From: Botryllus schlosseri
Lineage: Eukaryota
NCBI GenBank assembly: GCA_051294905.1
Contig: CM119372.1
Span: 40,054,001-40,118,000 of the forward strand
Length of the DNA: 64,000 nt
Direction: 5' to 3'
The notes below the pieces were generated by a model that was given only the letters and a program-made list of their open reading frames with translations, made no database searches and had not been told where the DNA came from. Below, in pieces: positions 7,948-64,000 of the stretch. The translations under genes were made by a program, and so were the position numbers. Numbering within the stretch: position 1 is the stretch's first letter; the number at the start of each line of letters is the position of its first letter.

Positions 7948-9448
7948 CTGCAAATAATAAAGTGTTTTTAAATGAGCCTACGTGGTCAAAAATTCTCTCA
8001 AAAACATTGCTCAAACACATCTGTGATGACAAATAAACACACATGTCACTTTTGTCACCAAAATCAGAGTTGGACAAATCCACAAATAGATGATTCTAGT
8101 TGTCTAATTAGAGCAAAATGCTAATCGGACTTGTGAAATGTTCATGTTTTTATTTGAATTCCGATCGAATTTCTAGTTTTCCTGAAAAATGCAACAGGAG
8201 AACTGTATGCTGTAAAACAGTGGTACTCAAACTGGTGTGTGAAAGCATCTCAAGGGAGCGCGAAGCTGCGGTCAACTGAAAAATTTGTTCGCTCTATGCG
8301 CGATTTACCTCCAATTCATAGTTATTGCTCTGCGTATAGTCTGGATTTCATATTTGACAATCCTCTCATCAATAGACATAACCTTTCATGCCATCAAACC
8401 ATGTTGGGATTGCTAGCATTCCGATTGCATTTCGTTCAACGACGATTAGGGTGCGCAAAATTTGTCATTCATATAGAGCTAAAAAAGTTTTGAGAACGAT
8501 TGGTGTGAAACGAGCCAAGCTTGCTGAACAGACAGCTGCCATTCTTGTGCTCAAGCGATTGAACTATGATTTGATGTGAACTGAGCCTATTGTTATTGCA
8601 TTTCCAATTCAATTTCTTACATTTTTGCGAATTCAGTCATGCCAAGTCATCCTAATTCTAGAGTAATTTGACAAAGCTGCAAATCTTCCTGTTTCCCAAT
8701 CAGACTAGAATTATAGCCATACATTCATAGTGTTAAGCCCGCACACCTCCAAATAAAGGTGGAGTGGGAAAAATTGAATGTGTGCTGCGTATAAGGGTGG
8801 ATATAATCAAGTATCTGAATGATTGCATTCTGACCAGAGTATTAGACGAATCAAGTATCACTCATTACAATGTCAGATCAGTAAGAGAGATGAGGTAAGT
8901 TCATATATGTATAATTTATGGACGAGGCGAAGAATGTCAACTTTACATTACAATAAAGTTAATTTGATACCGTAACAGTATTTTTCGACCATACTTATTT
9001 CATTCCACTTTGTGACAACGCTGTGGACGGATCACAATTTCACAGATATGTTATTTTCACCAATTTGGTATACATTTGTTTGACAAGTATCCAGATGTTG
9101 CGTAACCAATAGAGGTCTCGAGGCTGCCAGTATGGGGAGAAGAGTATCAAAACCATCATTTTTTAAAGAATAATAGCACAAGTTGAATAGTATAATTGAT
9201 ATGAACCAGAATATTTTCGACTGCCACTGGTGAGCGGTAATTGTCAGCACCTACTAGAGAACCAGAATGAACATGGTACCATGTATCAACAATTAGTGGA
9301 AAATGCCGTATGATTTCGGTTCTATAATAGTATCTCTCATTGCGTGACTTGAATCATATAAATCTATATTAGGGTTAGACTCGAGTACTCAAATTATGGA
9401 GCACAGTCTATGTGAATAGATTCTGATCTAATAGCAGTTTTTACAGAC

Positions 9449-16179: not shown

Positions 16180-16980
16180 CTGGTCAATAGTCGTCAGTGT
16201 CAGATTATATTTTCGATGTACAGTTACGGTCTCTTGAACAGGCATCGACCTAGTGCCCGATGTCACATCCACATGCAGTTCTTTTATCGATGTTGGTCTC
16301 TATTCCGCAGCTCTTTCCATTCCTGTGTGTGCGCTCTTTCATCGGGTCTTTTTCTGCGCTATTTTGTCGTTGTAAGAACAACGACGCGGGGGAAGAGGAG
16401 TCCAGAATAACCTGCGACACAGGATCGCCACCGCTACGTGTTCTCCCCTGATTAGTCAATTAGTATGGCTATACAGCAATACCGCATATAGTCATATACT
16501 AGGTCAACCTCCTAAACTAAAGCTGATCAATCTTGAGCAAAACATTGAAAATTGCAATAGCGCTGATCGGTTAGCCTTCATAATAAGAAGATGGCACTGG
16601 TATACACTACAAAATATAATTTGCAATTTGGTTTTAAATTTTACACGGTAAATGGATGTGGTCCCATATTTCAGCGATTTGTTAGTCTGTCAAATGTTCT
16701 CGACTGCCACTCGTCAGGGGTAATCGTCAGCAACTAGTGAAAGATTGGATATATATAACATTTCATATCAACAAATGTATTATCTGATATGACGTCACCA
16801 CATGAAATTACGAATAATCGAGGCAAAGAGATCGCTTCAGCTCAATGTACTATTTTTACACGTTACAAATGCTTTTATCTCTATGGATTACCTTGAGTAA
16901 GCTTTCTTCGATTCAGATTAAATATCTTGGCTTTTGTTGCGTTTGTCGATATGAACAAGCGAACTGTCAATCTCAGAGAC

Positions 16981-17292
16981 ATGTCAGCTGCCAACAGCGG
17001 TCTCCCACAATACGCCAGCCAAGAAATACAAAATCGAAAGATCATATCGGATTTACAGAAAGAAAAAGCGCGTCTTCGAATGCTGCACAACAATCCTATG
17101 TCTGCGTCTGGCCCTAGCTCCCAACGCATGAACATTCCAGTCGCAAGCTCGGAAAACGCAAACAGTATCGGAGTATCGCAGCGTATGGCCATGCAGATGG
17201 CGAGTTCTACCTCGTTCGGATATTTCATTCCACAAGATTCTGGATTTGGAAATATGATTCTGCCTGTTATTCCAAGAATCGGGCCGAACTGA
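16981..17292 (+). CDS. INIP: SOSS complex subunit C (INTS3- and NABP-interacting protein), intronless CDS, 103 aa
   Basis: MSAANSG...NRKIISDLQKEK and C-terminal GYFIPQDSGFGNMILPVIPR match the SOSS-C signature as recalled (GYFITQDSAFGNLILPVLPR); alternative in-frame ATG at 16951. Confidence 0.93.
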   Translation: MSAANSGLPQYASQEIQNRKIISDLQKEKARLRMLHNNPMSASGPSSQRMNIPVASSENANSIGVSQRMAMQMASSTSFGYFIPQDSGFGNMILPVIPRIGPN

Positions 17293-19460: not shown

Positions 19461-19524
19461 ATGGTCAAGGTTGCAATCTATAGCACTTTAATCTCAACCG
19501 CTCTGATCGCGATCAGCGCTTTTG
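19461..19524 (+). CDS. ATP6V0B: V-ATPase 21 kDa proteolipid subunit c'', coding exon 1
   Basis: ATG 6 nt after a TTTTCTTGCAG acceptor; MVKVAIYSTLISTALIAISAFG; GTGAGT donor in phase 1 that joins exon 2 in frame. Confidence 0.85.
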
Positions 19525-20823
19525 GTGAGTATTTGCAAGACTTGGTGTTCAAGATTTCTGTCCAATAAATTGGACACTAGGGCTGTTCAAAAAAAATAAT
19601 TCCCTTCAGATTTCGATGGCTACTTGAAAAAATTGTTAGGTTAGTTAAAAACGCTGCACATCAACTTTGGCTCAATTCCAACCAGTAGAAGCGAGATTCC
19701 TGCAGTAGAAAGTTTTGAAACGAAACCAAACAGGGGTGACTTTGGACTTGAGGGTAACTTTGAGCACTAATCAGTAAAACATTCAAAGGTTATTGATGGA
19801 AATGCCGCTGGATGTCCAATTCTTTTTTACAAGTGGTCTTGACAAAAGGCGGATTCATTTCACTACCAGATAAACTTGACGCAACATTGATAAATTAATG
19901 GCGTACTGGTCAATTTCATCAAAATTGATGGTTACAAAATTCTTGATAGCATATGAGCCATCGATTCAAAACTTGGCAGCAGACACCTCTTTGTAGTCTT
20001 AATTTACAACAGGAATATCAGTATGCTCCCCCTCAGATCAATAGAATAGAATGTGATGTTCAAAGCTACCCCCTCATATTTTATCAGAACAGGGTAACTT
20101 TGGACAGTTGAAAGTGTGATATTTAGAGCTCTGGAGAGTGGCTGCTTCATCTGCGTCAAAGTATATAGTCAAATCCTATTCGTTATAACCTGCCTGGTGG
20201 CTCTACCATGTATTGATAGTATGGATTGAAATAGTGGAGCAAAAGCGGTCACTAATGGCTTGTTTGAAAGATGATATCTCTGTCGCAGTGAATAGCATGT
20301 ATTTATTTACACTAGTTATCCGTTGTGGACGTGTACAAAAATGTACATTTTTACAACAAGGTTTTCTCGTCTTCTTGATTATATACACACTCAGTTGACA
20401 TGCTTTTGTCTAGCTTTAAAGCGTAGTTGGTTAGTCGTTGACATTCTGAATCCAACGATATGTTGCTTGTTGGTTTCGCATCCCATTGAGGTCGTGTTTT
20501 ACAGTTTTGAAAAGTGAAGCAAAAGTTTTCGGAAAAACCCGCACGTGCCCGCCGGTTAAGAAAGTTGCGCAAGTGGGCAAAATCTACTTGAGCACTCTGA
20601 TAAAGTGCAAGTACTTTGTTACTGTCTGCCACTGCTTACAGGAGTCCTTATGAAATCTTTTTAGTTTATGTCAAGTCCAATCATAGCAATGACTGCAAAG
20701 ATGTTCAAATAAATGTGCCTTAAAGCGAGATTCCATATCTTTTGAATGTCGGCTCAAAAATATGTTTGCCGGGTTCTCGTTATGACAACATAGCAATGAT
20801 TTCATTGAACCTTACCATTTCAG

Positions 20824-20956
20824 GCCTCTACTTTCTATTCACGGAGCAGAAATTTCGTCTCGATGTCGGTTGGTTGATATTGTCTGTGAGTCCGTACGCT
20901 TACGGGTCCGTTGGCGTCGGTCTGTCTGTCTCCTTGTCTGTCGTTGGAGCGGCTTG
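20824..20956 (+). CDS. ATP6V0B: V-ATPase subunit c'', coding exon 2
   Basis: LYFLFTEQKFRLDVGW...SPYAYGSVGVGLSVSLSVVGAAW; AG/GTAAG boundaries. Confidence 0.95.
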
Positions 20957-21259: not shown

Positions 21260-21332
21260 GGGTATTTTCACGACGGGTTCTACGATAATGGGCGCCGGCA
21301 TCATGACGCCGAGGATTTACTCGAAAAACCTG
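21260..21332 (+). CDS. ATP6V0B: V-ATPase subunit c'', coding exon 3
   Basis: GIFTTGSTIMGAGIMTPRIYSKNL; phases consistent with neighbours. Confidence 0.95.
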
Positions 21333-21609: not shown

Positions 21610-21739
21610 GTGAGCATCATCTTCTGCGAGGCGGTCGCCATTTACGGGATCATCGTCGCCATTGTCATGTCCAGCAATCTGGAAAACGTGGACTGGGACT
21701 CGCTCAACGCCAAAGAAAGGGCCGCCAATTATTATGCCG
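21610..21739 (+). CDS. ATP6V0B: V-ATPase subunit c'', coding exon 4
   Basis: VSIIFCEAVAIYGII with the conserved proton-carrying Glu; ends NYYAG|GTAAG. Confidence 0.96.
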
Positions 21740-22180
21740 GTAAGGAGAATCTGACAGAGTTGGACATCTGGAAAATTGTCATCTTTTACAAATTACATTC
21801 GGATTAGAATGAAATCTATGCGTTTCTTCCAAATCAGACGGTTTTTGCAACTTTTTTTTACAGCTTCCGACAGCTGCCTAGATACTCATAATCTACATAC
21901 TATTATGTCTTGAAATGTGCAGAGCGATTTTATAGTGCAACTTTTTGCAACTCTTCTCTATTTTTCATGCCAATTTTTACTGCAACTTTAATCAAATATT
22001 GCGTAAAAATGTTAAGGAATGATTTGAAAACATGCTAGGGCCTACAGTCATAGGCGCCAGCTTTTATTTTTTTACGAGGTGGCGAAGTCTTGTGACGTCA
22101 TAATTGTTCCATATCGATGACGTCATCGTCGCACGAAAACGCATTTCACTAAATGCCGCTGGTGTAGCATACGTGCAGAG

Positions 22181-22800
22181 TAGGGCTGTTCAAAAATAAC
22201 CTTTTATCCTGAATCTTGCAGGTTACTTGATTAAATCGTTAGGTTGCCTTAAAAAACGACGCACACCAAATTTGAATTCATTCCAACCAATATTCGCGGA
22301 TTTCGTAGAGTTTAAAAATTTTGAATTTGCCTGAAAATGCAAAAAAATTTTTTTTTCAAATTTTCCTTCCAACCCTATGAAATTGTTGCGCTGTCTTCAA
22401 AAACGATGGAAAACAAATTTGACTCAATTCCAAGCTGTAGAAGCGGAGTTATTCAAGTTTTTTTATGATAATTCTGGGATGATCCACCAATCAAGGATAA
22501 TCCCAGAATTATCAAAGAAAAACTGAAATAACTCCACTTCTACGGCTTCGAATTGAGTAAAATTTGTTTTGCATCGTTTTTGAAGACAGCGCAACAATTT
22601 CATGGGGTTGGCAGAAAAATTTGAAAAAATTTTTTTTTTTCATTTCTAGGCAAATTCAAAATTTTCAAACTCTACGAAATCCGCGAATATTGGTTGGAAT
22701 GAATTCAAATTTGGTGTGCGTCGTTTTTTTAAGGCAACCTAACGATTTAATCAAGTAACCAGCAAGATTCAGGAAAAAAGGTTATTTTTGAACAGCCCTA
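22181..22800. mobile_element. Near-perfect palindromic hAT MITE (620 bp)
   Basis: TAGGGCTGTTCAAAAATAAC termini; exact TSD GTGCAGAG; the two arms are reverse complements almost to the centre. Confidence 0.9.
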
Positions 22801-24534
22801 GTGCAGAGTTAAACCATTCGCGTGTCGTTTTAATATCGGCCCTGCACTAATTAATATCAAACCATGCAGTCGATTTATTAAATGGAATCTTAAAACATAT
22901 CATTCGAAAGTGTAACTGCGGCCGGCGCTACCAGTCCGTCCGACGGAATGCATCGAACATTTACTGCACTGGGAATCTGCAGTTCCATCAATGTTATTCA
23001 CGCACATTGCGCCGTGTGAGTAACTAACGAAATACACTGGTCTTAAAGTAACACACGACAACTCTCGAATACTTCAAGCAGACAATAATGATGATTACAA
23101 ACGCGAAATCGCGCAGCCAATCAGTAATTGTCTCTTGCGGTTTCTTGCTTCGCGTTGACCAACTCGCATCGCGGCAATTGTTTGCTGATTAAAACAGCGA
23201 TTTGGGCGGCATTGGTGCATTTCCCGATTGATGTTCGCGAAGCATTTCGGGAGTACATCGGTCAATTCGTAAATTCAATCTGCATGTCGACGGCCGCCAA
23301 CACATACTAATTGAATTACGTGTTGACGGCCGCACAAATTTACTTCTATGGCCGCAGGTTGGCCACCCCTGGGCTAGAATTAATTCCACTTCCGGGCGCA
23401 TGCCGCGATCTTATCAATAGAAATCCACTGTCTATCTAATGCCTAATAGTTTAATATTCGATAATGTTGTTCTTGATACGAGTACATCAAACAATCAAGT
23501 TTATCGGAATGTAGATGGTTCCCTGTTCAAACGAATCGAATAAAATCAGAATTTGTGCCACCCAGAATCTTGTGATGCATCAATATTTGACAATGGCATG
23601 GCATGGCCTACTACACGTTATTAATGAAAGGAACACTGCAAAATGACTTTGTGCGACAATTTCGGAGTACGAATGTATCAAGTAGATAACAAGAAATATG
23701 GATGATGGCAAATGAGAAAGCGTGTATTTTAATTAGTATCGTCACGACTGGGTTTTGAGTCTGACACCGTATTGAGTAGCTTTCGTCGCGACAATTGTTT
23801 TTCATTATATCGGCGTTTAAGCTGTATTGCTGCAGTTCCCGATTAATGTCACTGGCAAAGCCTTGTTAGAGAAACGAATCTGCGCAGAAATGAATTCCAA
23901 TTTGCAGGCACACATCAACACACCCTCCAATTCCGCGCTCCGATTACCAAGACTATCACGAAGCTAGCTCGCCCATGAATGGTTTTGCAAACGAATATGG
24001 GCGCACATAATTTAGATTTCAGAAAAGCAGAACGTCTATTTGAGCGCCTGGTCGGTAGAGGAGATCTAGGATGGTGCTTCTCGGCAAATTAGGGGGATTT
24101 GGATTTTTTTCAAATTTACCAATATAGCATCAATTCAATTCGGGTCAAGTACATGCGTAAATGGCGATCATATATTCTCTTCGTATTTATGATTTTAGGC
24201 GTATGATAAGCTTGTCAAAGAGTCCGGGAGTGCTGTCAATTAGCGAGTCCCTGGTTTCTGGTGAACAATTAAATACGTGCGCGTATTACGTAGTCTCGGC
24301 GACAGTTTTCGCAAATCAAAATGTCTTAACCTGATGACACCGATTTCAAATCTTTGACGTCTTTCAGAACTCGAGCCATGACAGTCCAGGGCTTTGGAGC
24401 AGCCGTAAATTTGAATTGCTCCAGCTCCGGACCTTTCTTCTATCATACACTAGCTCCGGCTCCAGCTCCGGAGCCGCATTATTACCACTGCTCCGGCTCC
24501 GGCTCTGAAAACTATGGAAGGTGTCTGTCTATAT

Positions 24535-25222
24535 CAGGGGTGGGCAACCCGCCGCCTGCGGGCCATATGTGGCCCGCGAGAAGGTTTTGAGTAGCCCGCG
24601 AGCTAATTTCCCATTATATATTATCGAAATTCTGTTATATTATCGAAATTGATTTGCTCAGATTGTGAACTTACAAGGCCAACCAAAAAACCGCGACACT
24701 TGGGATGTTGATGACTAGAATATCAGTTCTGACGCATTGGCAGATCCAGGGTCCAGTCACATTTTTTAGTAAATTGTCGTACATTACAATAAACTAAAAG
24801 AGTAGTATAATTTTTCTCCACGCTTCGCGTGTTTAATTGTCACACATTTTCTTGCTTTGTAGCCTACCCCCTGCTGAAAATGAAAAAAGCGACCGATTTA
24901 GCCGATTGAGTCTAACTATATTCGCAATTATGAGAGAAAGTCTTTTCGCGTTTGCGCTCGTAGAAAGATCGTCGACGCTGAAATGTAGGCACAAAATGAT
25001 TGTCTTATATCATCGGAAATCTTCGATATCAATATGTCCAGATGCCGAATAGTCCTGTCCTTGCAAACTGAGCCCAGCGGGCGGTATACAGTCGACCCGC
25101 AATATACCCAAGTAATAATAATATTAACTTTGAAAATGTTACGCGCCTGGCGCGGCTAGTGGGCACCGCACTCGTTCGTCAATTTCATGTGGCCCTTTAG
25201 CCGAAAAGGTTGGCCACCCCTG
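24535..25222. mobile_element. Charlie-like hAT MITE
   Basis: TIR CAGGGGTGG; exact TSD GTCTATAT. Confidence 0.85.
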
Positions 25223-28200
25223 GTCTATATAGATTACTAATTTACCCGTAGGTTAGTTATCTATAACAATCTAGAGTCTGTCAGCCGTCAGAAACATTGG
25301 ATGCAGCAACGAAGACATACGTGCCGCCGTGTCGGCTTGTGACTTCATTATGAATAGCCTACTTGTCAATTGTCGATAACATCATAGTTGCACTTTACGT
25401 ATTTTAGAACGCACTTTACTCCATGCCATTGCTGTGTACAACGCGGCGTTTTAACACTGGCACTGTACTCGTTAACATTAAGCTCAATTAAATCTTAAAA
25501 TAAGCGATTATTAGTCAACTGTAACTGAGCAATATGGGCGGACATCACGACCTTATCAATAGAGATTCGATTTGTACCAAATGGCCAATGGTTCGACGTT
25601 CGATATTGGTGCACTCGTTACCTGTCCATCCGGTGTCGACCAAGTTTATCCGAATAGGTAATTTTCCCGTTGAAACGAATCGAATAATCGAATTAAACAC
25701 TGTACCATGCACATTGCGCCATGCCCATAACGAATTAAACTATGCAGTATGCACATTCCGCATTTACAAGTCACAGTCCGCGATAATCCGGGAATACTAG
25801 AGTATCAAGCAGACATCAAGAATGAATTTACGAAACAGATGATTACAAATTGGAAATCGCGTATCATATCAGTTAATTTGTCTCCATCATAAAATACCAT
25901 GGGGTCCTGACATCGCATTGAGTAGCTCACACCGCGAAAATTGTTCATTGAGTGTAACGGCGTTTTGGGCTACTCTTCTGCCATCCCCTATTCATGCTCG
26001 AAAATCCTTACTGGAGTGAATGACGATCATGCGCAGTATTGAATTCCAATTCGCATGCTTAATTGCATATTCAATAACACTGTCCAATTTCGCGTCCGAT
26101 TTAAACAACTACCACGAAAGAACGAGTATTTGCTCATCCGATTCATATCGACGATGAGATGGAATTTCTTGGCTCGTGCTCGTCATATCGACTTGTGCAA
26201 CGAAATCATGTTTTTATCCTCTCTCCCATTTCGCGTAATACATAGTTATCATTATTTTCTAACCGTACAATTGGCCAACAAGGTTGTGCTGATGACGAAA
26301 TTGCGGGTATGCCGAATATTCACTATATCTACAGGGATAACTAGCATACCGAGGTTCGGAACTCATGTATGAAAATTGAACATTGAATATATGACTGCTA
26401 TGCTGTTAAATCCCCAGGAACATGGTTGGTCAGAAAAGGTAGCGCCAAAGGTAAAAAATTCTTAATTTCGCGAAGGCCTGCTGTTGCAGATATGGTTGTT
26501 GCATATAGAATAGCATCTTATGTATTACGTCGGAGCCGGAGCTACCCCTCAAATACCTAGCTCCAGCTCCGGCTCCGGCTGAATTTTAGGTAGAGCTCCG
26601 GCTCCGGCAAAAATTCACGGCTCCTGTGCTCCGGCTCCGGCTCCAAAGCCCTGCATGACACACATCTGATCGTTATACGTTCAAGTATGAGCGGGAATCA
26701 ATTACGTCTGTTTGCAGCGATTCGATGTTATTCAGTTTCGCGATGTTGCTTTTTAATCAATATGACATAAAACAATTACTAATTAGCGTAAACTCGACCG
26801 CATTGTCTCCAAACCAGCGAGAGATAGGAGCCAAAGCGTGCTAGGCCTGAGACGCGATAGTTAGGCCAGCAATGATATCTTCAACAACACGCCTATTGCA
26901 GATGCTATTGTGTACGCCAGCGATGATATCGTGCACACCAGGCTGAAGCCTCCAATGCAAATGCAGATGCCATTGCGCAGGCAAGCGGCGATATAGTGTT
27001 AACTGAGCCTATTGCAGACGCGATAAATCGGGCTCGCGACGATTGCCACCCGCACAGGAATGAATGACCTAATTTCGCGACCATCTCAGCGGGAGATTAC
27101 CACTGACTCTTCTCACTAATTGACAACGCGTTTCTCGCAAATCAGCCGCGCGTAACACTGATAACAAAATTATTGAATGGCAACTGAATACTAGAGTTAG
27201 AAATTAGAATGATCATTTCAAAATGACGGGGTTTCGCGTTTCAAATAGGGAAGTTCGACCCCCGAAACCCTGTGGCTACGCGCCTGGCACACTCGCGTAT
27301 CGAAATCGGAGACGTCTCTAACGAGGTCGCATCGATTCGCCTGATTACTGGTCACAAATCACTTCAGCGTCTGAGCATTTTGTACGAGGTGGTCGCCACC
27401 TCGTAAATATGGTCACGAGGTGGTAACCTCCTAAGTCGGCGCCTATGCCTACAGTATGAACTATTTCTAGTATGATTCTATTCTCTTTGATTTGCATAAC
27501 AAAGATCTATATGATGGGTTGGCTGCATCTCACTGTTATCTATGACACAATGGCTTGTAAGCAACAAGTTCAACTACACCTGCCAAGCACGACCGTGCCC
27601 GTACAATATGTGAATAGATCGCTTTGTTAAATTTAAAATAGTTTCCCATTTTATGAACGCCCTGGCGAGCCCGCCGGAAATTAGATTTTCATTGGGTCAC
27701 CTTTTTCAGGCTATTGATTTTGGTAAAGTCTCCAAGAGCGAGTTTTTCTGTAATGCATCGGTTATAGAACGGAACCTTTTGAGTATCTTATATCCTAATA
27801 ATACAACAAAAATTATAAATGCAACTTTCTCGCGATTTTAGTGCAACAAAAACTTGCCCTAATAATTATACATTATTACTTGAAGAGTTTTGCCAAAATA
27901 TTGTAGAATTAGGATTAAATCTTTGCACTTCTATTCAAATTAGACTAGAATCATAGCTACATTTTTTTTCAAATTTGAATATAATTAGCATTATTAAATC
28001 CACAAAAACTTTAAAATTTAATTGAGACCGGTTCATATCAAATCATTCTCAAACATGAGAATGGCCAATGTCTGTGCAGGAAGCTTGACTCGTTTCACAC
28101 GATACAGTTCACCAATATACAATTGAATAGTATATTCTATCAAAATGAACATGAATATTTTCGCCTGACACTCGTCAGGGGTCATCGTCAGCAACTAATA

Positions 28201-28309
28201 GACAATGGGAAAGAACATCGTATGTCAACATTGGGAGGGGCCGCTCACCGTTTCATCAGTGTTCCTTGGAGTCGACCTTAATCAAAATACATCTGCCCAA
28301 ATTCATGTA

Positions 28310-29607
28310 GGGGAGAGTGTGTAGGTATGGGCCACCAAATCTTGCCAAGCTATAACTTGGCCAAACTTGGTCCAATATTCCAACATTTTGGTACAGACAA
28401 TCATTAGTTATATGGCTAACTATTACTGATAGAATTGAGTTAAAATACCCATGTATTTGGAGGTGACATGAAATTTTGTAATAATACATCATTATTGTAA
28501 ATAAAAAATAGGGTGATGAGGTATGGGCCGCTGCCTGTATTAAATCAATAAATGCTATTCATTATCCTAAAAACCTCAACTCTTGTCACAGTAACCAACA
28601 ATTTGGATATACTGATATAATGCTGGTCTGGAAGTGAACAATTCATATATTTCAATTCCTGTATTGATCATAAGTCATAACGAAACCAGGTAACTGAAAA
28701 TATGAAACATGAAAATCACTATCAAATTATGCTTCCTTCGCCTTAACTACCCCATCAAATCCAAATGTCACACTCACAGCAATCTCTTGTTTAAGTGGGA
28801 GGGACAAACCATAATACATCTTTGAGCATATGATGACATACTGTGCTAACAAACTTTTCGCCTCTTCATTAAAGACAGTATTGGCAAACGATTTTGAAAT
28901 GTTTTTCGTGCGAGATTCATCCCGTTTTTTTTCCAGATACCTGTTTAATGTACCTCTATCAATTTTGTACTGACAGCATGCTTCTCTTTTTGATACCTCC
29001 CATGCTTTAACTTTTCGTATCATTTGCCAAGCTCAAATCTGATTCTGAAAACTGGCCTTTTTAGCGGGTTTCATGATCTACTTTTAAGCGATTGTATGTG
29101 GGAAGGATAAGACCAACGCTTTCTGTATTATAGTGGTAAATATATATAATAGGATCAATCAAATATTGACCTCAGGTATATGCTACGCTGTCCCATAACC
29201 CAGCCTATTGTGGTATGGGCCGGCCCATACCCCAACCTGATGAAAGGTCCGCACCTCAAACACTCCATCTTGGTGATTCTTCCCATAATTTCAAGATCCG
29301 AGTGATAGACAGCGCGTTATAACTATTCTCAGTAGATAGCATATTTCTATAGCTTTCACACCCTAACTAAGTCTTATCCAAACATGCACATGCATAGACT
29401 CAAACCCAAATTCCCTATTTTCAAAAAAATTTACTATAGGCTGCAAAAATTATATATCTCTAGCTGAGTCAAAAACTCTGCTGGCTTCATGGCTGTGAGT
29501 AACATCGGTGAGTCTGGAGCCTTTTCTTACAATCACAGAGCTTGACGAGCATATATGATGTCACAGACGCCTGATATGGCAGTGGCCCATACCTACACAC
29601 TCTCCCC
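28310..29607 (-). mobile_element. Internally deleted pogo/Tigger-like DNA transposon
   Basis: 26-bp TIR GGGGAGAGTGTGTAGGTATGGGCCAC with TA on both sides; ORF 28727-29023 (SKREACCQYKIDRGTLNRYL...VFNEEAKSLLAQYVIICSKMYYGLS) looks like a pipsqueak HTH followed by the start of a CENP-B HTH. Confidence 0.8.
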
Positions 29608-29682
29608 TACCATCTTATTTCAGATCTCATTTCATGACACGATTGTTGATATACAATGTTCTTTCCAATTTTCCACTAGTTG

Positions 29683-29730
29683 CTGACGATTACCCCTGAC
29701 GAGTGTCAGCCGAAAATATTCGGGTTCATT
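29683..29730 (+). ncRNA. Candidate minimal type I hammerhead ribozyme (Penelope pLTR-like repeat)
   Basis: ACCC-CTGACGA-GTGTCAGCC-GAAA-ATAT-TC-GGGT: intact core, palindromic stem III, UUC cleavage triplet, stem I ACCC/GGGT; stem II is weak. Confidence 0.6.
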
Positions 29731-30408
29731 TCAATATGAATAGACTATTCAATTGCATGTTGAAGTTCTGTACCTCCAAGAATCTCCTTAGATACAGTTC
29801 TCCTGTAGCATTTTCTGGGCAGCCATAAATGATATTTTATTTGAAATGAGAGCATATAACAAATGAGATTAGAATGAACTTGAGAAACCAATAAAATTAA
29901 TCAGCCCCCTGATTCTGAGTTCGAAAAGTACAAATTAGTATTTAAATTGTCTAGATGTGGATATTCGTATTGCAATTATGTCGGGATTAGATTGTAAAAT
30001 CAAAATCTGGATATGATTTTGTTTATTATTGTTTCATAATGTTCCAGACTCAGACTACTAATGCGAGCGAAATGCCGGTTTCTATATGATCTTATCTTGA
30101 TTCTGGTCCAAATTCTTGGTTTTCCTGAAAATGCTACAGGAGAACTGTGTCGTGCGAATCAGGCCAAGATCGGTGTACTGACATTTGCCATTCTCGTGCG
30201 ATTTGATATCAAGTGAACTTGAGTTTTGTCGCAGCCCCTGCTAATTCGGAATTGAAATCAGTAATTGCGGACTCAGTATTTTTAATCTGATTTGGAAAAA
30301 AACGCCAAAGCCTAGTTGTGGACGAGAAATCGCCAGTTATAAAACTGGGGAGTGCGTATGCGTAGGCACCCTCACGCGCACCATCATCAATCCTTGTCTG
30401 TTTTGCAG

Positions 30409-30635
30409 GTTTCTCGATATTCGCGGCCGGACTGATCACGGGCTTCACTAACTTGGCATGTGGCGTCTGTGTTGGTATAGTTGGCAGTGGAGCGGCGCTA
30501 GCAGATGCGGCCAATGAGTCCTTGTTTGTGAAAGTTCTCATCGTTGAGATCTTCGGGAGCGCCATTGGCTTGTTTGGGGTCATTATCGGGGTGATCGCCA
30601 GCTCCAGGGCCAAAATGGGGAAGACTTCTGCTTGA
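30409..30635 (+). CDS. ATP6V0B: V-ATPase subunit c'', coding exon 5 (protein 208 aa in total)
   Basis: [58 protein letters not shown]...*; strong TTTTGCAG acceptor. Confidence 0.97.
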
Positions 30636-33662: not shown

Positions 33663-35565
33663 ATCTATAGAGTAGCCCGAGGACGTTGAGTTTATTGAGT
33701 CTAGGGTAGGGTTGCCATACGTCCGAAATTTCACTGTTCAAACTAGCGTCCGGTAGGAAATTCTAAAATATGCCAAATGTCCGGAATTTTGAAGATTGAC
33801 GTGGGCTCATAATTTCTTTGTAAATCAAAAAATAAAAACAATATTTTTTGGGAATATTTATGTTGATGTATGGTATTTTTCTTCGCGATGCGCGCGATTT
33901 ACCATCACATTTATTCATTTTAATATGGAGACTACCACCCCCGCAAAAACTGCGATGAAATATAAATAAAAACAACCTTCATTTACTGGAATAAGCCTAA
34001 TTGTAATCGCAATTATAGGAGAACGGCAGTGGCGGCTCGTCCTATATGGCAACTGGGGCATTGCCCCACCTAAAATTATGTTCAATAACAATTTAACCAT
34101 TTATAGACGCACAGCGCTCAATATATATCGAGATCACAGCGAAACCCGCGTTCTTCTTGTGCTTTCGCTTGCAAATGCCCATACATAGCGAAGTCTCCGC
34201 GAAAATCGAATTCTCTTCTGTGTTTTCGCTTTGTGAATGCCTAGCCGGGGCTTGCCCCGGTAGCGCTCATAACAAGCTTTCACTATCTATTCTCTCAAAG
34301 CTGCGCACAATTAAGAAACGTTGCTTTACTCTCTCCTATTCGTAAAATGGCCGAGCAACCGGGGCAAATATGCTTGCTCGCCCCTAAGGTGTGATGTAAC
34401 AATCGTATCTATATCTGAACTCGGATACCGTGATATGCGTTGAGTCGACCGTTGCTGGTACAGGTCGATTTTGATGGTGTTTCACACCATGATAATTCTT
34501 GAAACTTGGTATGTCATGTCGTGATGGTGGTATTTAACACTGTCCTAAGTTTCAGGGTTTCTACTCAAAGTTTAGGGTAGTAATTCCGTTTCCAAAGTCG
34601 AGTGTGTGCTGATCGGTCATGTATCGCAAACATATTTCACGCAAAGCCGGTATTGGTCTCCATTGATTTTAACGATGCTCCTTAGCTAGATCCGTCATGA
34701 ACTTTTACATGGTATGTCTTGATTTTAGTATCGAACGCTGTGCCAAGTCTCAAGGTTGACACTCAATGATTAGGGCAGCAATTTCGTTATTAAGTTCGAG
34801 TATGGTAGAGATGTGCGCTGATCTGACACTTAGCCTACCTAACGCATTGCGGATTTCACGCAAAAGCCGGTGTATCTGTGTTCCATACTGAGATAGGTGA
34901 TGAGATGATGATATCATGAAACAGTTTACTAACATCCTCGGTTTGCATTCAAATATTTAGTTTTATTTTATATTCTCCAATGTCAATTTCACCGTGGAAT
35001 GGTGGCCTTCGGGCCATTTGCTCACAATTACAACCCCTGTCAAGCGCGATAGCTGTTTCGTTTTCGATGGCGGCTAACAGCTGATCGCTTGATCAGCCGA
35101 TTCCTCAGTAAATATTACGCAAAATTCGGCGTTGATCTGTTCGTATTAATTTTGACAGTGTACCATACCGAAAACGGTCATGAGGCTATACTTCTCGATG
35201 ATTTCATGTAACAGTGTACCAAGTTTTCGGCTTTCATCCACGTATTTATTCGGTAATATATTTCCGAAGGCGATTTTGCAGCAGACATATAGACACTATA
35301 GACCGTAAGCCGTATGTGTCGTGTGACAGTCTCCAGCCTCAAGGCCAGAATCTCCCAAGCTGTACCGGGACCGAATTTCCGAGGCTGCTATCCGTAGTTC
35401 TTCAGAATGATGTTTTGGATTCAATATGACATTTCCTTGTCCAATCTATGAGATAACAATTGCGTATGTGTCCGAACTCGTTGACCTTTCCAGTTAGGCA
35501 TACGCAATCTCTCGATTTATAGTCATTTCCATTTCTGCAGATAAGTAGTCAGGTCAAGTGCGAAC

Positions 35566-37645
35566 ATGAATCGTGTTGAATCTTTGCTCCGTACGCCGTT
35601 TAGCCAGCTGCCTTTAGAGCAAAAATTAGAGGTAAAGCGACTAGGTCCGTATCAGCCTAGAAATTGCCCATTGATCCAATCGTACGCCGGAGGAAAGCGC
35701 ACTCGTGCCTTTTCTTCAGCGCATTTCGATAAAAATGAATGGCTTACTTATGGCGAGGATAAAAACGCCTTGTTTTGCTTTTACTGTCTTTTATTCGACA
35801 GTGCCGGTACCGGAAGCAGTGGCTCTTGTTGGAACAAAATTGGTTATCGCGATCTGAAGCATTTGTCAGAGCGTCTGAAAACGCACCAAAAATCCCAAGT
35901 GCACATGGCTAGTGCAGTTAAATATAAATTGTTTGGCAGAGTAAATGTAATGTCGCAGCTCAATGAAAGTTATCGCGTATCAGTCTGCAAGCACAATGAG
36001 CTTGCATGTTCTCTCTCGGGTGATTGATGCCATTAAATTTATTGGAGTTCATGAATTGCCCCTTCGAGGCCACGATGAGAAGGAATGCTCTCTCAATAGG
36101 GGGGTATTTTTGGATCTAATTAAATACACGGCTTCCATTGATAGCATTTTGCGCGAACATCTCGACACCGCGACAGTAGCTAAGGGTACCTCAAAGACTA
36201 TTCAAAATGATGTGCTTGATTCGATATATCACATCTATCTACAGCATTTGTTTACCGAGATTGTTGACGCTGAATTTCTATCTATTCAGTCTGACGAAAC
36301 AACTGACATTACGTGTTTGTCACAACTAGTCGTGATTTTTCGGTTCACGAAATTTGGTATGCCAGTCGAACGATTCCACAGCTTTGTGGCTGTTGACGAT
36401 CGCACTGCTGTCGGAATTTCTTACGTATTAAAAAAAAACATTACAGCCCTATTCAGTTGAGTCGAAACTTATTGCGCAAACCTACGACGGCGCAGCAGTC
36501 ATGAGCGGATCGCGACATAGCGTACAAGTTTTAATGAAAGAAGTTTACTCGCATGCGCATTTTTTGCATTGCTACGCGCATCAGCTCAATCTTGTAGTGG
36601 AAAAATGTGCTTAGGAATATCTTCTGTCAAGATATTCTTTGCAAATCTTTCAGGGTTCTCCTCCTTTTTCTCTATTTCGCCAAAGCGATCTGATCTATTG
36701 CGCGACATATGCAAGCACCGGTTACCTAGATGCGTATCAACACGGTGGAACTTCCAATCCAGAGTTGTGCAACGAGTGTCAGAGAGTAGGGTGGAGCTTC
36801 TGGAATGCTTCTCAGTGATTGAGAGCTCTCCTGTCTGGGATGATACTTCCATACGTGAAGCGGCGGGGCTTAAACGACTCCTGGAAGACGAAGAATTTTT
36901 GTTCTTTTTGAAGCTTTTTTGTGACATCTTCATGCACGTCGATACACTGTACAGCACTTTTCAGTCGCGTATGGCCGATGGTACTACTGCGCAATTGTGT
37001 ATTGCACATTTTTGTGAGGCAATTTCGCATATCCGGGCGAATGTACACTTCGCTGGTGACACAGCGCTTTTACGTCGTGGGATAAGTGTGCAAAACCTGC
37101 TTGTTGCGGCTTACGAATGTTGCGATATACTGATGTCCCAAATCCAACATCGTCTGAATAGTGACCAGTTGGTTACTTTCGCCCTGTTAAATCCGAGAAA
37201 TTTCCCTGCCTACAAAATTCATTATCCTTCTGGACTACTGCGCAGCGTGCCTCGTTATTACCCGATGATCGACATTGCTCGGTTGGAGAGCGAGTTGACT
37301 TGTTTGTATTCTAACACATCCTTTTCGGAAATTAAAACCACTAGTGAACTTTCAAAATTCCTTGTTGAAAATTCGCTTTCGATCAACTTTGCTACAGTAA
37401 CTAGCTTTCTGAATATCATTTTGACCACCCCGATTTCATCCGCGGAATCCGAGCGCAGTTTCAGCACATTGAAACGTCTCAAGACCTTTCTCAGAAACAG
37501 GATGGGCCAAGATAGGCTTAATGCGTTGGCTGTTCTCTCGATTCACAACGACGTGGTTCTGGGAATTCCAGATTTCAATAAACTCGTTATTGAACATTTT
37601 GCTAATAAGAAATCACGTCGCGCACAATACTTATACAAGACATAA
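35566..37645 (+). pseudogene. ZMYM1-like hAT transposase, three frameshifts
   Basis: TTF-type finger (WLTY...FCFYCLLF), LPLRGHDE...NRGVF, SIQSDETTDI, QTYDGAAVMSG, HCYAHQLNL, TRWN, and dimerisation motif SAESERSFSTLKRLKTFLRNRMGQDRLNALA; shifts near 36005, 36435 and 36603. Confidence 0.9.
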
Positions 37646-37675
37646 ATTAATGCTGGTGGGCGGACGACTGTACAG

Positions 37676-38293
37676 TAGGGCTGTTCAAAAATAACTTTTT
37701 CTTCCCGATTCAAGCCGTTCACCTCTTAAATCGTCAGGTTGAAGTAGAAAACCTTGCTCACCAAATTTCACTCGATTCCAATCAGTAAAGGCATCCGCAG
37801 ATCCAATTAAAATTTTTAATTTATTATGGAAAATAAAAATAAAAAATTTTCCAAATTTTTCTGCCAACCCCATGAAATTGTTGAGCTATCTTCAAAGACG
37901 TTGCAAAACAAATTTGAGTCAATTCCGACCAGTAGAAGCGGAGTTATGTGAGTTTTTCGATGATAATCCTCGGATTATCCTTGATTGGTGGATAATCCGC
38001 AATTTATCAACGAAAAACTCACATAACTCCGCTTCTACTGGTCGGAATTGACTCAAATTTGTTTTGCAACGTCTTTGAAGACGGCTCAACAATTTCATGG
38101 GGTTGGCAGAAAAATTTGGAATTTTTTTTTTTTAATTTTCCATAATAAATTAAAAATTTTAATTGGATCTGCGAATGCTTTTACTGATTGGAATCGAGTG
38201 AAATTCGGTGAGCAAGGTTTTCTACTGCAACCTGACGATTTAAGAGGTGAACGGCTTGAGTCGGGAAGAAAAAGTTATTTTTGAACAGCCCTA
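37676..38293. mobile_element. Near-perfect palindromic hAT MITE (618 bp)
   Basis: Same termini as 22181-22800; exact TSD CTGTACAG. Confidence 0.9.
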
Positions 38294-49243: not shown

Positions 49244-49544
49244 CAATTTCCGCATCGGACCCGGTACGGACAACTACACACTGACCGTATCAGGATTCTC
49301 CGGAAATGCAACATACGATGCTCTCTCTCATCACAACAACCGAAAATTCACAACATATGACACCAAGTCTTCGCATAATTGCGCTAAAAAACGAAACGGA
49401 GGCTGGTGGTATCGTAACTGTGTCTCCGCCAATCTGAATGGAATCTTCTACAGAACAGGGGACAACGGAATGTGGTGGATTAATGCAACCGCCTCCAGAC
49501 GCTACCTGCGCTACTCAGAGATGAAGTTTCGAAGAAAACTATAA
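49244..49544 (+). CDS. Fibrinogen-related protein (ficolin/MFAP4-like), last exon
   Basis: NFRIG...YTLTVSGFSG...FTTYD...NCA...GGWWYRNCVSANLNG...SEMKFRRKL*. Confidence 0.93.
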
Positions 49545-55491: not shown

Positions 55492-57323
55492 GTGAGGAAC
55501 AACATGATTTTTCCACGCTGTTGTTTTAATCTATTTTCATTCATGTCAGGGCAAATATTTTTTTTGTCAATTTTGATTCACTGCGTAGTTTGTGTTGCGA
55601 ATCACCCACCGTATCGTTCCTACACGGTAGAATGTTAGCAAGTGTATAGGACTAGACGCGGGCGTGATTCAGGACTTGGAAATGATTAATGCTCTGAAAC
55701 CGGTGGACATGCGGTGATTATTTAACCTGCGATGCTACAATATGTGGGTAAGCTCAATCGAGACGATTTATCGGCATAGTTGATAGTTTGAGATTAAAAA
55801 TACGATGTTATCGAAGACGATGGTTCGCAGAAACGTAGCGCACCGTACACCAGACATTTGGATTTTGCCCATCTACTGCGGGCGACTGGATTTTGTACAA
55901 TACAGTAGCGTAGACTTGTTTATCTAACGATATCAAGAAAATTTTGTCAAATCCACTGTTTCGTTTATGGTTTACATCAGCGGTTGGAGGCTTGAAAATG
56001 AATTGAAGAATTAAAACATTAAATCTAAAACTAATTTAGAACGGGTTCAGAGACGTGACGTCTTGATCGTAGTCTGCTTGCTAATTAGCTTTAGTCGCAA
56101 TGCTACAAGTTCTGTGTACTGTTTATAAACAGCGTAACACTCGCTTAGGATCAGTACTATGTGAAAGGTAAGAAGTCGTTTTGACAAATTTTGACAAAAT
56201 ACAACACCACAATTTCGCGACGTTTGACATTGTAATAGAATCTAGCGATGAGCAAAGTCGGATTTCTTTCAACAGAAATGCAACATACGAAATCAAGTTG
56301 GTGGTTTTAACAGGACTTTATTAAGCTTCAATAAAACCAATCGTAACGTGCGTGATATTAAAAATACAGCAGGAAATTCTTCATTACATTAAAATTCTAA
56401 TTCATTCTGTGCGTGATCCTGTCATAATCACAATATGATGATGGTACACCCGTTAACAGGGTTTGTAATACTGTCTGGAAATGGAATATAGCCCCACACC
56501 AACCCTCCCAACTGGGCCAGAGCGCCAAACTAACCCGAAACCCACATTTTGGCTGATTTCCATTTTTTAAATTTCACTGTAAAGTTATGTTTGAAATTTG
56601 ACCGGTTCGCAAGCTGGAAAAGGTTGATGACCATTGGTTTATACCGTTATCAGTGAATGGTTACTGTCTCCATGAAATATTTTAACACGCGTATGAGTGT
56701 GAGTGGGCGAATTATTATTATACATTAAACAGTGGGTAGAGTGGAGAACATAAAGTCTGTAGGATTTTTGCGACAGTGACATCGATTATTCGAAACATCA
56801 GGTCACTGACATCATATTTGGCGATACAATTGTTGATATAAAAAGCTCTTCTTAATTCTCTATATTAGTTGCTGACGAGCAACCCTGACAAGCATCAGCC
56901 GAAAATATGCGGGCTCATTCCGAATGAATCTATTATACAATTGACAGAGTGAAGTTAATGCTAGAGGACATTCATAATATAAAACACGAAAATAACACAC
57001 TACCGATGTGCGTACAAACAGTATGAATATAGACATAGATATTTGTCGCACCAGTGAAAATCCGGTACGGACTAGGGTGACGACGAGGGGCCGCAAGGCC
57101 TTAGTGCACAGTCGCCCCTGTAGCTTTTAACGTTCTTCCCGCCGATCTAACATATTCAACTACATGTTGTAATATTTGTGGGTCGGTCAGAGTGAGAGTC
57201 ATTTCATTGGAATTTTTATGAGGTCAATACACCGCAAGATTGAGATATAATGAAAAATAGGAAGGTGACGAAACGACTTGAAGTATATAAGTCTTTAAAT
57301 CCAGCATCCGCCTTGGCCTAGAG

Positions 57324-57831: not shown

Positions 57832-59579
57832 GTCTAGAGCAAGTCAACAAAAGGCATGTATATTTCATAAAAATAAATAAACGATAGCATAGACATAACG
57901 TAGACTATATTATATCGATACTTATATGCATGGCATCGTAAGTCTGAGTGGGCCGATATAACTGGACAACATCGATTGTTCGCTCGCTATTTCTTCTGGT
58001 TTCGGATCCTATCATTTGCGTAGAAAGTGTGGGTGCCCAGGCCGGAAAATAGGCCGCATAAATATCTTTGTCTCTATTGAATGAAAATGTGCATAACATC
58101 GGAAATGCGGGCGAACGCGTCTACCTTACCGTGTTCCTTCCCTGAACCGCGTTTGCAGGAAGAGGCTGAAAAAATAATAACCGGTCCTGAGCACCCACGG
58201 TAACGTCTGGTTATATATGGCGGAAGCTGCATTCTTGTTGAGTAGTACGCAAATTCGGGTTAGAAATGTCAATCTTCTTTCCAATTCTCTACTAGATGAT
58301 GAAGATTACCCCTGACGAGTTTCAGCCGAAAATACTTGAGTTTATTTCAATATCAATAGACTAATCAATCGTATATTGAGGTTTTCTGCCTCCAACAAGA
58401 GGCTCGTTTTCTTCCATGCTTATCAAGTGAGCTTCATGTCATCAAATATAAAACAGTACATGATTCACGTAATATGGAGCAGCGTACCCCGATATCTTTC
58501 GGAGTAGGTCCGTAGCCTTTTCGATTATGTTTTAGGGGCGGAGACCTAAATAAAGATTATGAAGCATTCCGCCATCATCTGATCCGCGTGCGCTGTATCT
58601 TTCAAAAGCTTAGAACGAAAATGGGCCGTGTTGCAAGTCGACAGATCTGGTCCATAACAAAGAATATCGGCCTGGTGTAAAATAACCAATATACTCGAAG
58701 CACCTTAAATGTCAAATTCAACAATTGATTATAACTTGGAGGGTTAAAAGGTTGACATCATGATCAGACAACTATATCATCCATATGCTTATCACAAATA
58801 ATTTATTGATCCTGCTATCAAAATGGTTGATTTTTAACGCAAAAATCTTCTCACGTAAGTTCCACTGTCCTTGGTCACGAGAAATACAATCAATATTGCG
58901 TCCGTTATTTTAAATTCGGTTTAGCGAGCCCGGCCTTGCATATAGCAGCTATTCTAGTTGATGCGCTGACTGCGAGTTATTAAATGGATGGTGCTAAAGG
59001 CTAAAGCCGCTATATCGACGCACACATATCACAGTGTGCGATACATTGATGGTTGTTGTAAAATAGTTTTCTTGTCATTTTAAACATGATTCCGAATGTT
59101 TTATATAGTTCTGAAATGTAAATAAATATCGGAGCTATCGTTGGGCCGTATAAAACTTTGTGAATGATTTCATATGAAATGATGGTTTGAAATGTAACAT
59201 AATAACCACCATGTTGATTTTTCATATGCAACTCACTGATTGCGAATTTCCGGTAAAACGTATTCGACTACCCGTGCCTGACAAATGATATGGATCTGGC
59301 GTGGTTTGAAGCTCGGTGGGCGATTAAGTCATTTCAGGCGTCTTGTAATGAAGTGAATTAAGGCGCTGAGCATAACTCTTACTCAAAACCGGCGCAAGTT
59401 AAAATAACATTGCGTGTGTTTATTTTACATGTACCACATTATTGCATTATATGAAGAGTGTCGCAGCACACTTGTATAACGACACACTCATTGGTAGTGC
59501 TGTGTTTTATTACAATTTGCATGAGTTGGACAAACATTGTTTCTACGCAAAATGGCGGCCGAGTGGAAATTTGTTGTGT

Positions 59580-62142: not shown

Positions 62143-62384
62143 CACTACACAATTCGATAAGGTGCTGTAAGTACGGTTGGACAAAATCTAGTATCATACC
62201 GCTCGTGATTCGTTTCAGAGTATCATGGTTCGAGTCCGGTATCACTTGTTATAACTGCATTACAGTATGACGCGGATAGCTAAAATATGTACATTTTATG
62301 CGACCAAAATGAGAATAATGCATGTTATTGTTACGTCATACAGACAAAATAGTACCTTCATTTCTAATTTGATTCTCCCTGTTA

Positions 62385-62430
62385 CTGACGTTCGCTACTG
62401 ATGAGAGTCAGTCGAAAAGCTTGTAGCGAA
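62385..62430 (+). ncRNA. Candidate minimal type I hammerhead ribozyme, G at the cleavage position
   Basis: TTCGCTA-CTGATGA-GAGTCAGTC-GAAA-AGCT-TG-TAGCGAA: perfect 7-bp stem I, intact core, palindromic stem III. Confidence 0.65.
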
Positions 62431-64000
62431 TAAATTAAAGACATGAAGTATTGTTTCGCGTTACTCTGAAGTTCAGTACCCTAAATGGCTTGTTAAAATG
62501 TCTGTGTTGCACCGCAAAAAGCAGATTTGGCATTTTTCAACCATACCTATTCCGTTACACTTTCTGACAATGCTGCGAATTCATCATGATATCACAGATA
62601 TCTCATTTTCAAATACGTGTGTTCTGCGTGGCTTTGTAGAACATGTTTCGTATGCTGCGATACGACCAATCAAGATTACTAGGCTCCGTAATGGAAAATA
62701 CTTTCGAAAATATAATTCTAGTTGATAATTTAACTGGTTTTGGAGAGGGACGAATCATCTGGGACTTAACAATATCGTCTCTCACCACTCTACCCGAATC
62801 ATCGCGATTCGTACTTGATTTGGATTCGAGTACTACTCATTGTGCCCAGCCTTAAAACACAACCCATTTAAAACAAGCCATTCGGGATGTTGAACTTTAC
62901 AATCACATCAAACTCTACAATTCCACAACAAGAAGTTAACGTACGATGCAGGTATCAGCATGAGCAGGGTGCGACACAATTGGTGATTATCCAGTATCTT
63001 GTGCTACTAAAGCATTGTAAGGACAGGAAACGCCCATTTAAGCACAACTGAATTTCACTCGCGGATAAACCAGCAGACTCATCCGTGGGCGGCTTGCTAT
63101 TCGAAAGGTCGCGCTTCTCGAAGGCCGCTGCTGAATTTCTAAAATGGGCTGCCTGGGAATTCACAAATGTCTCAACTCGTTAGAGTTTGAAAGGCGGAAA
63201 GAGTAGAATCACCGCATGAATCTTGTTGCGACTCATGGCCTACCGAACCGTTTCCCACACGCCAGATTTACGACGGCCTGTCGGAAGTCAATATGTCATC
63301 GGGCGCTGAAATCCATTGTGATTTCTACGCTCGATAGCGTCCCGTTATATCGCGAGGTCTGACCGTGTTTCGATGAAGTTGCCGTTGATAACGAGGCGAA
63401 AATACGTTACCGATGCTACCGTCAATAACTTGGTTCACGGTACATAAATCGAATCCGTTTCGGGAATACATTTATGATAACTATGACTGGACACAATGAT
63501 GCGAGCACTCTGAATCTGAATCGAGTATTCATTCTGATGTTTTGAGTCGTGCAGTGAGACTCTGCAGATTCGTTCGAGCTCTGAAATGATACGAACCTTG
63601 CCAATGAGAGTTGTATTATTTACAACGATAAATCATAGTTTCGATACTATTTTACTCTATGGAAGCCTTGTAAACTGAATTGAGGGTATGGCCGTATACG
63701 TAACGCGTAGTACGAAGGTTCGCACGTTAGAGGAAATGACATATCTTTGATAATCGTGATCACAGCATGGTCACGAACAGCAATGAAATAGGTATGGTCG
63801 AGAAAGTGACAAATTATCTTTCATGTGATGTAAAACTGGCATTGTGATCATTGTTGTCACAAAAAAGTACACATTTGAACTTTTCACATCATTTAGATTG
63901 TTGTCATAATGAGCGATACTCGACTCAGAATCGAATCACTCAAGTGATCACTCAGATTTTGCCCCAACGATAACTCGATGACTTTACGGGTGCATTTTAT

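Follow-up and report, generated by a model that had tools for sequence, protein, structure and literature searches.

The locus and its motif copies

The window, that is, the whole stretch of 64,000 nucleotides analysed here, contains the gene encoding the V-ATPase c'' subunit (ATP6V0B). Its five coding exons yield an open reading frame (ORF) of 208 amino acids with 170 identities to a named Styela clava protein, which makes a styelid ascidian the most probable host.

19461..19524, 20824..20956, 21260..21332, 21610..21739 and 30409..30635, plus strand: coding exons of ATP6V0B
21740..30408, plus strand: host intron 4 of ATP6V0B

The intron number is a coding count that any untranslated first exon would alter. 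In one RNA run, 115 reads join the letters of exon 4 to the acceptor of exon 5, and intron 4 is spliced normally. The hammerhead motif at 29683..29730 lies in this intron in sense orientation, as the earlier note had claimed. Near its 3' end the intron harbors another abundant, transcribed repeat (30034-30227) with sharp ends at 30117-30118 and 30158 that are common to reads and contigs.

Other features of the window include two related near-perfect foldback elements of about 635 bp (22174-22809 and 37667-38302, 91-94% self-complementary) and a shorter relative at about 19570-19720; the foldback elements account for spurious Rfam matches to miRNA families. A hAT transposase remnant (35545-37645, three overlapping frames; Dimer_Tnp_hAT, E 7e-12) has a foldback element directly after it. 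Fragments of non-LTR (LINE-type) reverse transcriptase on the minus strand (43787-45151 and 3468-3866, with RVT_1 at 43790-44389) are unrelated to Penelope-like elements (PLEs). Two further exons, both on the plus strand, encode a fibrinogen C-terminal domain (49122-49544, E 6e-18) and SOSS complex subunit C (16897-17292, PF15925, E 1e-16).

The 29683 copy of the motif comprises the following parts.

29682..29687, plus strand: 5' strand of the proposed 6-bp pseudoknot (GCUGAC), pairing with 29705-29710
29692..29695, plus strand: 5' strand of stem I, ACCC, with four contiguous pairs to 29722-29725
29696..29702, plus strand: hammerhead core CUGACGA, identified from its sequence
29703..29711, plus strand: stem II module with the single pair G10.1-C11.1 and a 7-nt loop, of which 29705-29710 form the 3' pseudoknot strand
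29712..29721, plus strand: GAA, palindromic stem III AAUAUU (29715-29720, able to pair in a dimer only), with C17 at 29721
29722..29725, plus strand: 3' strand of stem I, GGGU (integrity table)

Positions 10.2 and 11.2 are U and C in this copy, so that a second stem-II pair is absent. Cleavage is predicted at C29721.

The exact layout CTGAC-N7..10-CTGANGA-GN-GTCAG-NC-GAAA matches three times in the 64-kb window, and seven matches are obtained with up to three mismatches; 100 dinucleotide shuffles gave none in either search. The six motifs that the earlier note had described as sharing one layout were all confirmed in position and strand. A seventh (9200-9247, minus strand), which that note had missed, was found by the mismatch search. 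The copies other than 29683 are as follows.

9183..9278, minus strand: seventh decayed family-A copy (the 9247 copy; mismatch pattern search, integrity table)
16690..16821, minus strand: decayed family-A copy ending at the ribozyme (the 16730 copy; sequence comparison, integrity table)
28103..28230, minus strand: inverted pLTR/hammerhead copy with broken stem I, antisense in the intron (the 28191 copy; 84.5% over 129 nt to the 29683 copy)
56811..56956, plus strand: decayed family-A copy with broken core (the 56872 copy; sequence comparison, integrity table)
58270..58398, plus strand: decayed family-A copy, with an inner pseudoknot pair changed from C-G to A-U and another pair broken (the 58299 copy)
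62384..62495, plus strand: family-B copy with pseudoknot strand, long stem I, AAGCUU palindrome, G17 (an inactive triplet) and a frameshifted ORF-start tail (the 62385 copy)

Six copies, which have 80-150 nt of flank in common at 68-85% identity, constitute family A; the 62385 copy represents family B and aligns poorly to family A outside motif and tail. That some copies are degenerate, as had been noted before, was borne out: only one of the seven, the 29683 copy, has core, GAAA, palindrome, U16.1-C17 and four contiguous stem-I pairs together. The set CUGANGA, G10.1-C11.1, GAAA and U16.1-H17 is present in the 29683 copy and fails in five of the six others, the exception being the 28191 copy, which retains this set and has lost stem I (0 pairs). 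GAAA is lost in the 16730 copy, the cores of the 56872 and 9247 copies are broken, and the 58299 copy has a broken palindrome and one stem-I pair. In the 62385 copy stem I is long (8 contiguous pairs by script, 7 of them Watson-Crick) and position 17 is G. The 16730 copy is antisense and lies about 170 nt upstream of the exon for SOSS complex subunit C.

Since six copies form one dispersed family and 62385 a second, the covariation of stems I and III proposed earlier amounts within the window to a comparison of two families. The stem-I variant of the 56872 copy, likewise put forward as covariation, occurs in one decayed copy only, proves little, and was not accepted. The Rfam hammerhead models, proposed in the earlier note as a check, gave no match in the window even at E<=10, nor any in five related loci.

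Origin in a Penelope-like element

The motif had been taken for a minimal type I hammerhead that derives from a PLE and has a palindromic stem III, a view that is supported and now backed by protein evidence. A 17-column profile built from 25 PLE protein N-termini was run over all six-frame 17-mers of the window. The tail of the 29683 copy ranks first of 127,894 (29.8 bits) and the tail of the 62385 copy second (14.6 bits), the next match scoring 11.5. A 23-column profile of the endonuclease end places 28230 (plus strand) first of 127,858 23-mers with 24.8 bits, the next match scoring -4.4 and the maximum in the reversed window being 0.4; tblastn alone gives this endonuclease piece E values of 0.11-0.3 only. 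A six-frame motif search of the window for words typical of the PLE reverse transcriptase (RT) and endonuclease returned nothing convincing, whereas the profile search did succeed.

28230..28298, plus strand: decayed C-terminal piece of a PLE GIY-YIG endonuclease, adjoining the inverted copy (profile)
28307..29610, no strand assigned: MITE-like element that later inserted into the PLE remnant and split it, with terminal inverted repeats of 29 bp and a probable CAT target duplication
29635..29681, plus strand: pseudo-LTR (pLTR) sequence upstream of the ribozyme, with words that we take to be TATA-like and initiator-like (the family pile-up begins at 29635)
29736..29786, plus strand: PLE tail, the start of the RT/GIY-YIG ORF (MNRLFNCMLKFCTSKNL; top PSSM match, 29.8 bits)

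The terminal inverted repeats of the MITE-like insertion are identical, and internal GGTATGGGCC words recur. Of the adjacent RT and GIY-YIG ORFs that the earlier note had suggested looking for, the window holds 17 codons from the ORF start and an endonuclease piece of 23 residues; a full RT/GIY-YIG ORF is absent from it. Protein searches from family M (see below) lead to full-length RT/GIY-YIG proteins with starts such as MNPLLLAIFKFCSTNRLF. Homologous full proteins score above the cut-off for RVT_1 and reach 18-22.5 bits for GIY-YIG against a cut-off of 22.6. The CX2-5CxxC linker, whose absence would separate Penelope/Poseidon from Neptune or Nematis, was not seen in P0088 on inspection by eye.

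The stretch 28103-29786 is probably one inverted-type insertion, consisting of an inverted pLTR, the endonuclease end, the later MITE, the pLTR, the hammerhead and the tail. Inverted-type PLE insertions are described by Craig et al. (PMC8557442). The roughly 25 nt between endonuclease piece and pLTR do not encode the expected protein end, and the single-insertion reading therefore requires a deletion. The TATA-like and initiator-like words just upstream suggest that the ribozyme lies at the 5' end of the pLTR transcript, with 29635..29681 as its putative promoter. On sequence grounds, the matches establish the origin of the motif in a PLE. As part of the overall explanation that we consider likely, the element would be an endonuclease-bearing PLE of a lineage with the ORF start M-x8-KFCT and the end LCKQKEF.

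Related families in other sequence collections

Metagenomes were scanned with a pattern in which core, 9-nt stem II module and palindrome were fixed and loop II and the 5' flank were free. The scan gave at least 121 loci. Among the matches listed, the same layout occurs in three more families (M, L125 and L055), and 87 of 121 loci belong to one of them, family M. From the 34 non-M loci among the matches listed, L125 and L055 were kept and 32 of the 121, which come without any PLE evidence, were set aside; three of the latter, non-PLE matches with 4-6 stem-I pairs, have no knot at this spacing. Within family M (87 loci, among the matches listed), the upstream CTGAC is the same and the GTCAG loop is the same in 85 of 87; a tblastn match to PLE proteins is found in 18 of the 87. 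What these loci match is the endonuclease end on the upstream side, the ORF start on the downstream side, or RT in inverted pieces. L125 also has a PLE protein match by tblastn, with ORF start and PLE context as in family M. L055 has no tblastn match at 1e-3, and its assignment to PLEs was made by eye only. Across families, three of four stem-I pairs show change on both sides. Stem III is palindromic and cannot pair within a single copy (AAUAUU and AAGCUU), L055 having a 7-nt near-palindrome.

Several loci of family M (L060, L026, L072) carry an inverted second pLTR or an endonuclease piece directly upstream, and L060 has head-to-head hammerheads within 200 nt. A match to the histone 3' stem-loop in L125 (249-295, minus strand, below the gathering score) was rejected as a hairpin of the PLE ORF start; the same stretch is duplicated within the L125 locus.

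A scan of prokaryote genome contigs gave 19 PLE-bearing loci, and those with hammerheads have a classical long stem II. The layout pattern, searched in five of these prokaryote genomes, matched at control level. In several prokaryote genome bins (L170-L186), PLE contigs of animal type occur that carry classical minimal hammerheads, which suggests host contamination of these bins. Viral contigs, scanned with a pattern four times, yielded 151 distinct matches, one of them with four stem-I pairs; these were treated as chance and used as a control. A protein-alignment scan of viral contigs confirmed 0 of 42 candidates. One viral-contig match (L241), with a 3-bp stem II, an AAGCTT palindrome and a 4-bp stem I, may be a real hammerhead.

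The proposed loop-II pseudoknot

The earlier note had postulated a loop-II pseudoknot of 5 bp on a 2-bp stem II. A single sequence was compared from each family (A, B, M, L125 and L055), and the structure was drawn from these five. They support a knot in all five families, with few independent changes, and one that is better described by 6 bp on a stem II of 1 bp. The upstream strand ends 8-10 nt before the core and pairs with six bases of loop II in each family:

Family A: GCUGAC/GUCAGC
Family B: ACUGAC/GUCAGU
Family M: UCUGAC/GUCAGA
L125: UGACGC/GCGUCA
L055: UCUGAC/GUUGGA

All cells are paired (30/30), and five of the six pairs show two-sided change among the five sequences; none of 500 shuffles scored as high, and slid alignments are 20-40% paired. 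Exact upstream/loop-II pairing is found in none of 17 viral chance matches with the 9-nt module. Position 11.2 pairs with the upstream strand in 5/5 families and with 10.2 in 4/5, which favours a one-pair stem II. The four changes in L125 probably reflect one 2-nt register slide, leaving about three independent compensatory events in total. The 58299 copy, itself decayed, adds a change from C-G to A-U and has another pair broken. Measured by the standard of Perreault et al. (four or more Watson-Crick pairs between loop II and the stem-I side, with covariation), the motif has six pairs with few independent events. The replacement of the second stem by an RNA knot appears to be the only unusual part of the motif, and the pseudoknot in a PLE hammerhead is a probable structural variant.

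The same PLE hammerhead could also show complementarity between upstream strand and loop II as a DNA motif of the pLTR promoter (TGACG half-sites, inverted repeat) or through neutral similarity, the ribozyme working with a stem II of 1-2 bp and with help from protein. Such a reading draws on TGACG in the upstream strand of 5/5 families, on the full TGACGTCA further upstream in family A, on the same five inner pairs being common to three families by descent, and on the anole PLE hammerhead, which cleaves only with its protein (PMC11167929). It accommodates less readily that the outer pair has three forms (G-C, A-U, U-A), that both strands change together in L125, and that L055 keeps its pairing via two G-U wobbles. 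The spacing from TGAC to GTCA is 17 nt in family M versus 22 nt in L125, which RNA pairing fits better than a fixed protein site does. We regard this explanation as unlikely.

A hairpin between core and loop competes with the knot. It is 76% paired across the five families and shows no two-sided change. In nested folding, a model that cannot show a knot, the upstream helix has p 0.86-0.93 in M and L125 and the core-loop hairpin has p 0.81-0.88 in A and B, the two being near equal in L055. Dominance of this hairpin in the fold had been named in the earlier note as evidence against its proposal, and for the 29683 copy the hairpin is indeed predicted with p 0.81-0.84. The upstream strand might be read as a mimic of the core, with loop II toggling between pairing with the core (off, monomer) and pairing upstream (on, dimer or protein-bound), i.e., as a switch. 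The hairpin has five possible pairs in A, B and L055 and four in family M, and N7 is C in all family-A copies with an intact core, perfecting it; L125, by contrast, has 0 such pairs, and a hairpin without two-sided change may be a by-product of the invariant core. A switch is, in our estimate, very unlikely.

We return to the loop-II knot as the preferred reading. That it provides a PLE ribozyme with a real tertiary contact, located at the extreme 5' end of the pLTR transcript and possibly fast without help from protein, is a tentative proposal that we hold to be somewhat improbable as it stands. If true, such a ribozyme would be invisible to Rfam models and to descriptors based on helix II.

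Abundance, tails and insertion

About 28,000 contigs per DNA run align to a 2.9-kb stretch at 85% likeness, a figure that is not a copy number, with a peak of depth at the motif. The 3' ends of the family cluster at 29742, 29755 and 29781-29786; in family M, most tails stop near 26 or 56-60 nt beyond the cleavage site. The hallmarks of PLEs, namely 5' truncation, an inverted 5' copy and an optional tail of 30-40 nt, are seen in the inverted copy (28103-28230), the clustered 3' ends and the two tail peaks of family M. Two clusters of 3' ends inside the ORF start fit the internal starts of reverse transcription shown for the anole element. Since the tails run beyond the cleavage site, the insertion template must either have escaped cleavage at this point or have been joined again afterwards; in the anole PLE study (PMC11167929), cleavage is dispensable for insertion in vitro.

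In the living element, the hammerhead would sit between the pLTR promoter and the start codon. By analogy with known PLE hammerheads, two copies in a tandem transcript would pair via the 6-nt palindrome to form stem III, and cleavage would follow position 17 in that dimer. Stem II would be cut down to G10.1-C11.1 (at most 2 bp), and loop II would pair with the 6-nt strand 8-10 nt upstream of the core, a pairing supported by the comparison. In place of loop-loop contacts, as known systems suggest, the knot would keep stem I parallel to stem II, the arrangement of pseudoknotted hammerheads from bacteria and metagenomes, with a presumed effect on rate. Target-primed reverse transcription would begin inside the ORF, some tens of nucleotides from its start, and would soon end in 5' truncation or inversion; such insertions would have scattered very many short stubs of pLTR and tail across the ascidian genome.

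Position in the ATP6V0B intron

The earlier note had further proposed that the 29683 copy could cut intron 4 of ATP6V0B after C29721; as a domesticated intronic ribozyme, it would thereby affect the host transcript. Domesticated intronic hammerheads, such as the conserved amniote intronic motifs, each occupy a single locus and keep their intron position from species to species. The 29683 copy is in sense, it is the only copy in the window (1/7) with all features intact, and its 3' junction occurs in contigs of two samples from two studies. It is also one of very many copies, and the pre-mRNA offers no second sense copy with which to build stem III. The antisense copy 1.4 kb upstream would precede it in transcription and, in the minimum-energy fold of 28050-29850, pairs with the motif over its entire length; the duplex of 28103-28230 with the 29683 copy is predicted at -149.7 kcal/mol versus about -23 for each alone. 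The core hairpin (p 0.81-0.84) counts likewise against cutting, as do the spliced mRNA and the unique intron bins (29840-30033), which have zero RNA depth. No site with a pile-up of read ends is listed for two RNA runs, a weak indication given fragmented libraries and a site swamped by paralogous reads. We therefore did not retain the claim, and consider cleavage with an effect on the host transcript very unlikely.

The 29683 copy is most likely a chance arrival in the intron, a well-preserved relic that would cut the pre-mRNA to no useful extent; its intron position looks accidental. Taken as a whole, the explanation that we consider likely is a type I hammerhead of a PLE pLTR with a loop-II knot, left in the intron as a chance relic.

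Comparison with known hammerheads

Minimal hammerheads in the pLTRs of metazoan PLEs were reportedly also treated by Lunse et al. in 2017. Cervera and De la Pena (2014; PMC4209133) describe minimal PLE hammerheads whose stem III is palindromic and whose activity as dimers is weak. The motif resembles these in its type I core, G10.1-C11.1, location in the pLTR, palindromic stem III that needs a dimer, and occurrence as mostly solo, 5'-truncated copies with nearby pairs on opposite strands. Inspected by eye, the text of Fig. S3 of that paper gives 56 motifs; stem II has at least 3 bp in all 56, and in most of them an additional base separates 9 from 10.1. Unlike these, the 29683 motif has a stem II of 1-2 bp, no extra base between 9 and 10.1, a loop II that pairs upstream, and a 6-nt palindrome as stem III. 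According to a review (PMC6155905), PLE hammerheads usually come without tertiary interactions. Other PLE lineages examined here have the classical long-stem form.

Pseudoknots are described in all three hammerhead types by Perreault et al. (2011; PMC3088659), who tested a one-pair stem II with a 6-bp knot. Within the portion of that paper available, the tested pseudoknot examples are of type II, and the text draws no connection with PLEs or with a palindromic stem III formed in a dimer. Its analysis of stem lengths omitted repetitive type I motifs, and its sequence dataset could hold motifs of the present kind.

The anole Poseidon element PAc (Frangieh et al. 2024, PMC11167929) is alike in having a hammerhead at the boundary of pLTR and ORF, two starts of reverse transcription inside the ORF that give an optional tail, and no RNA-seq read ends at the cleavage site. 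PAc differs in that its ORF start lies inside stem II and reverse transcription starts 111-118 nt into the ORF, whereas in the 29683 element the start codon lies 15 nt past the cleavage site and tails end about 21-65 nt past it.

Non-LTR retrozymes (Cervera and De la Pena 2020, PMC7229834; bioRxiv 10.64898/2026.07.22.740005) are likewise non-coding, PLE-related repeats with type I hammerheads. They form head-to-tail arrays with canonical motifs, whereas the seven copies in the window are never in tandem: none of 14 tandem-repeat rows overlaps any of them. A retrozyme reading was rejected on this ground (0 of 14).

Pseudoknotted hammerheads and palindromic PLE dimers are each already known. Within the literature compared, which lies mostly outside subscription journals and does not extend to Lunse et al. 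2017, we found no published description of the combination, nor any in ascidians.

Significance

The intron location of the motif adds little. The metazoan PLE hammerheads tested so far are slow or protein-dependent and are said to lack tertiary contacts. The lineage with the knot is also a very abundant repeat that is missed by current Rfam models, and it offers a small, clean construct for testing fast cleavage. Divergence of the pLTR and of stem I around a retained knot suggests that fast cleavage has been selected for.
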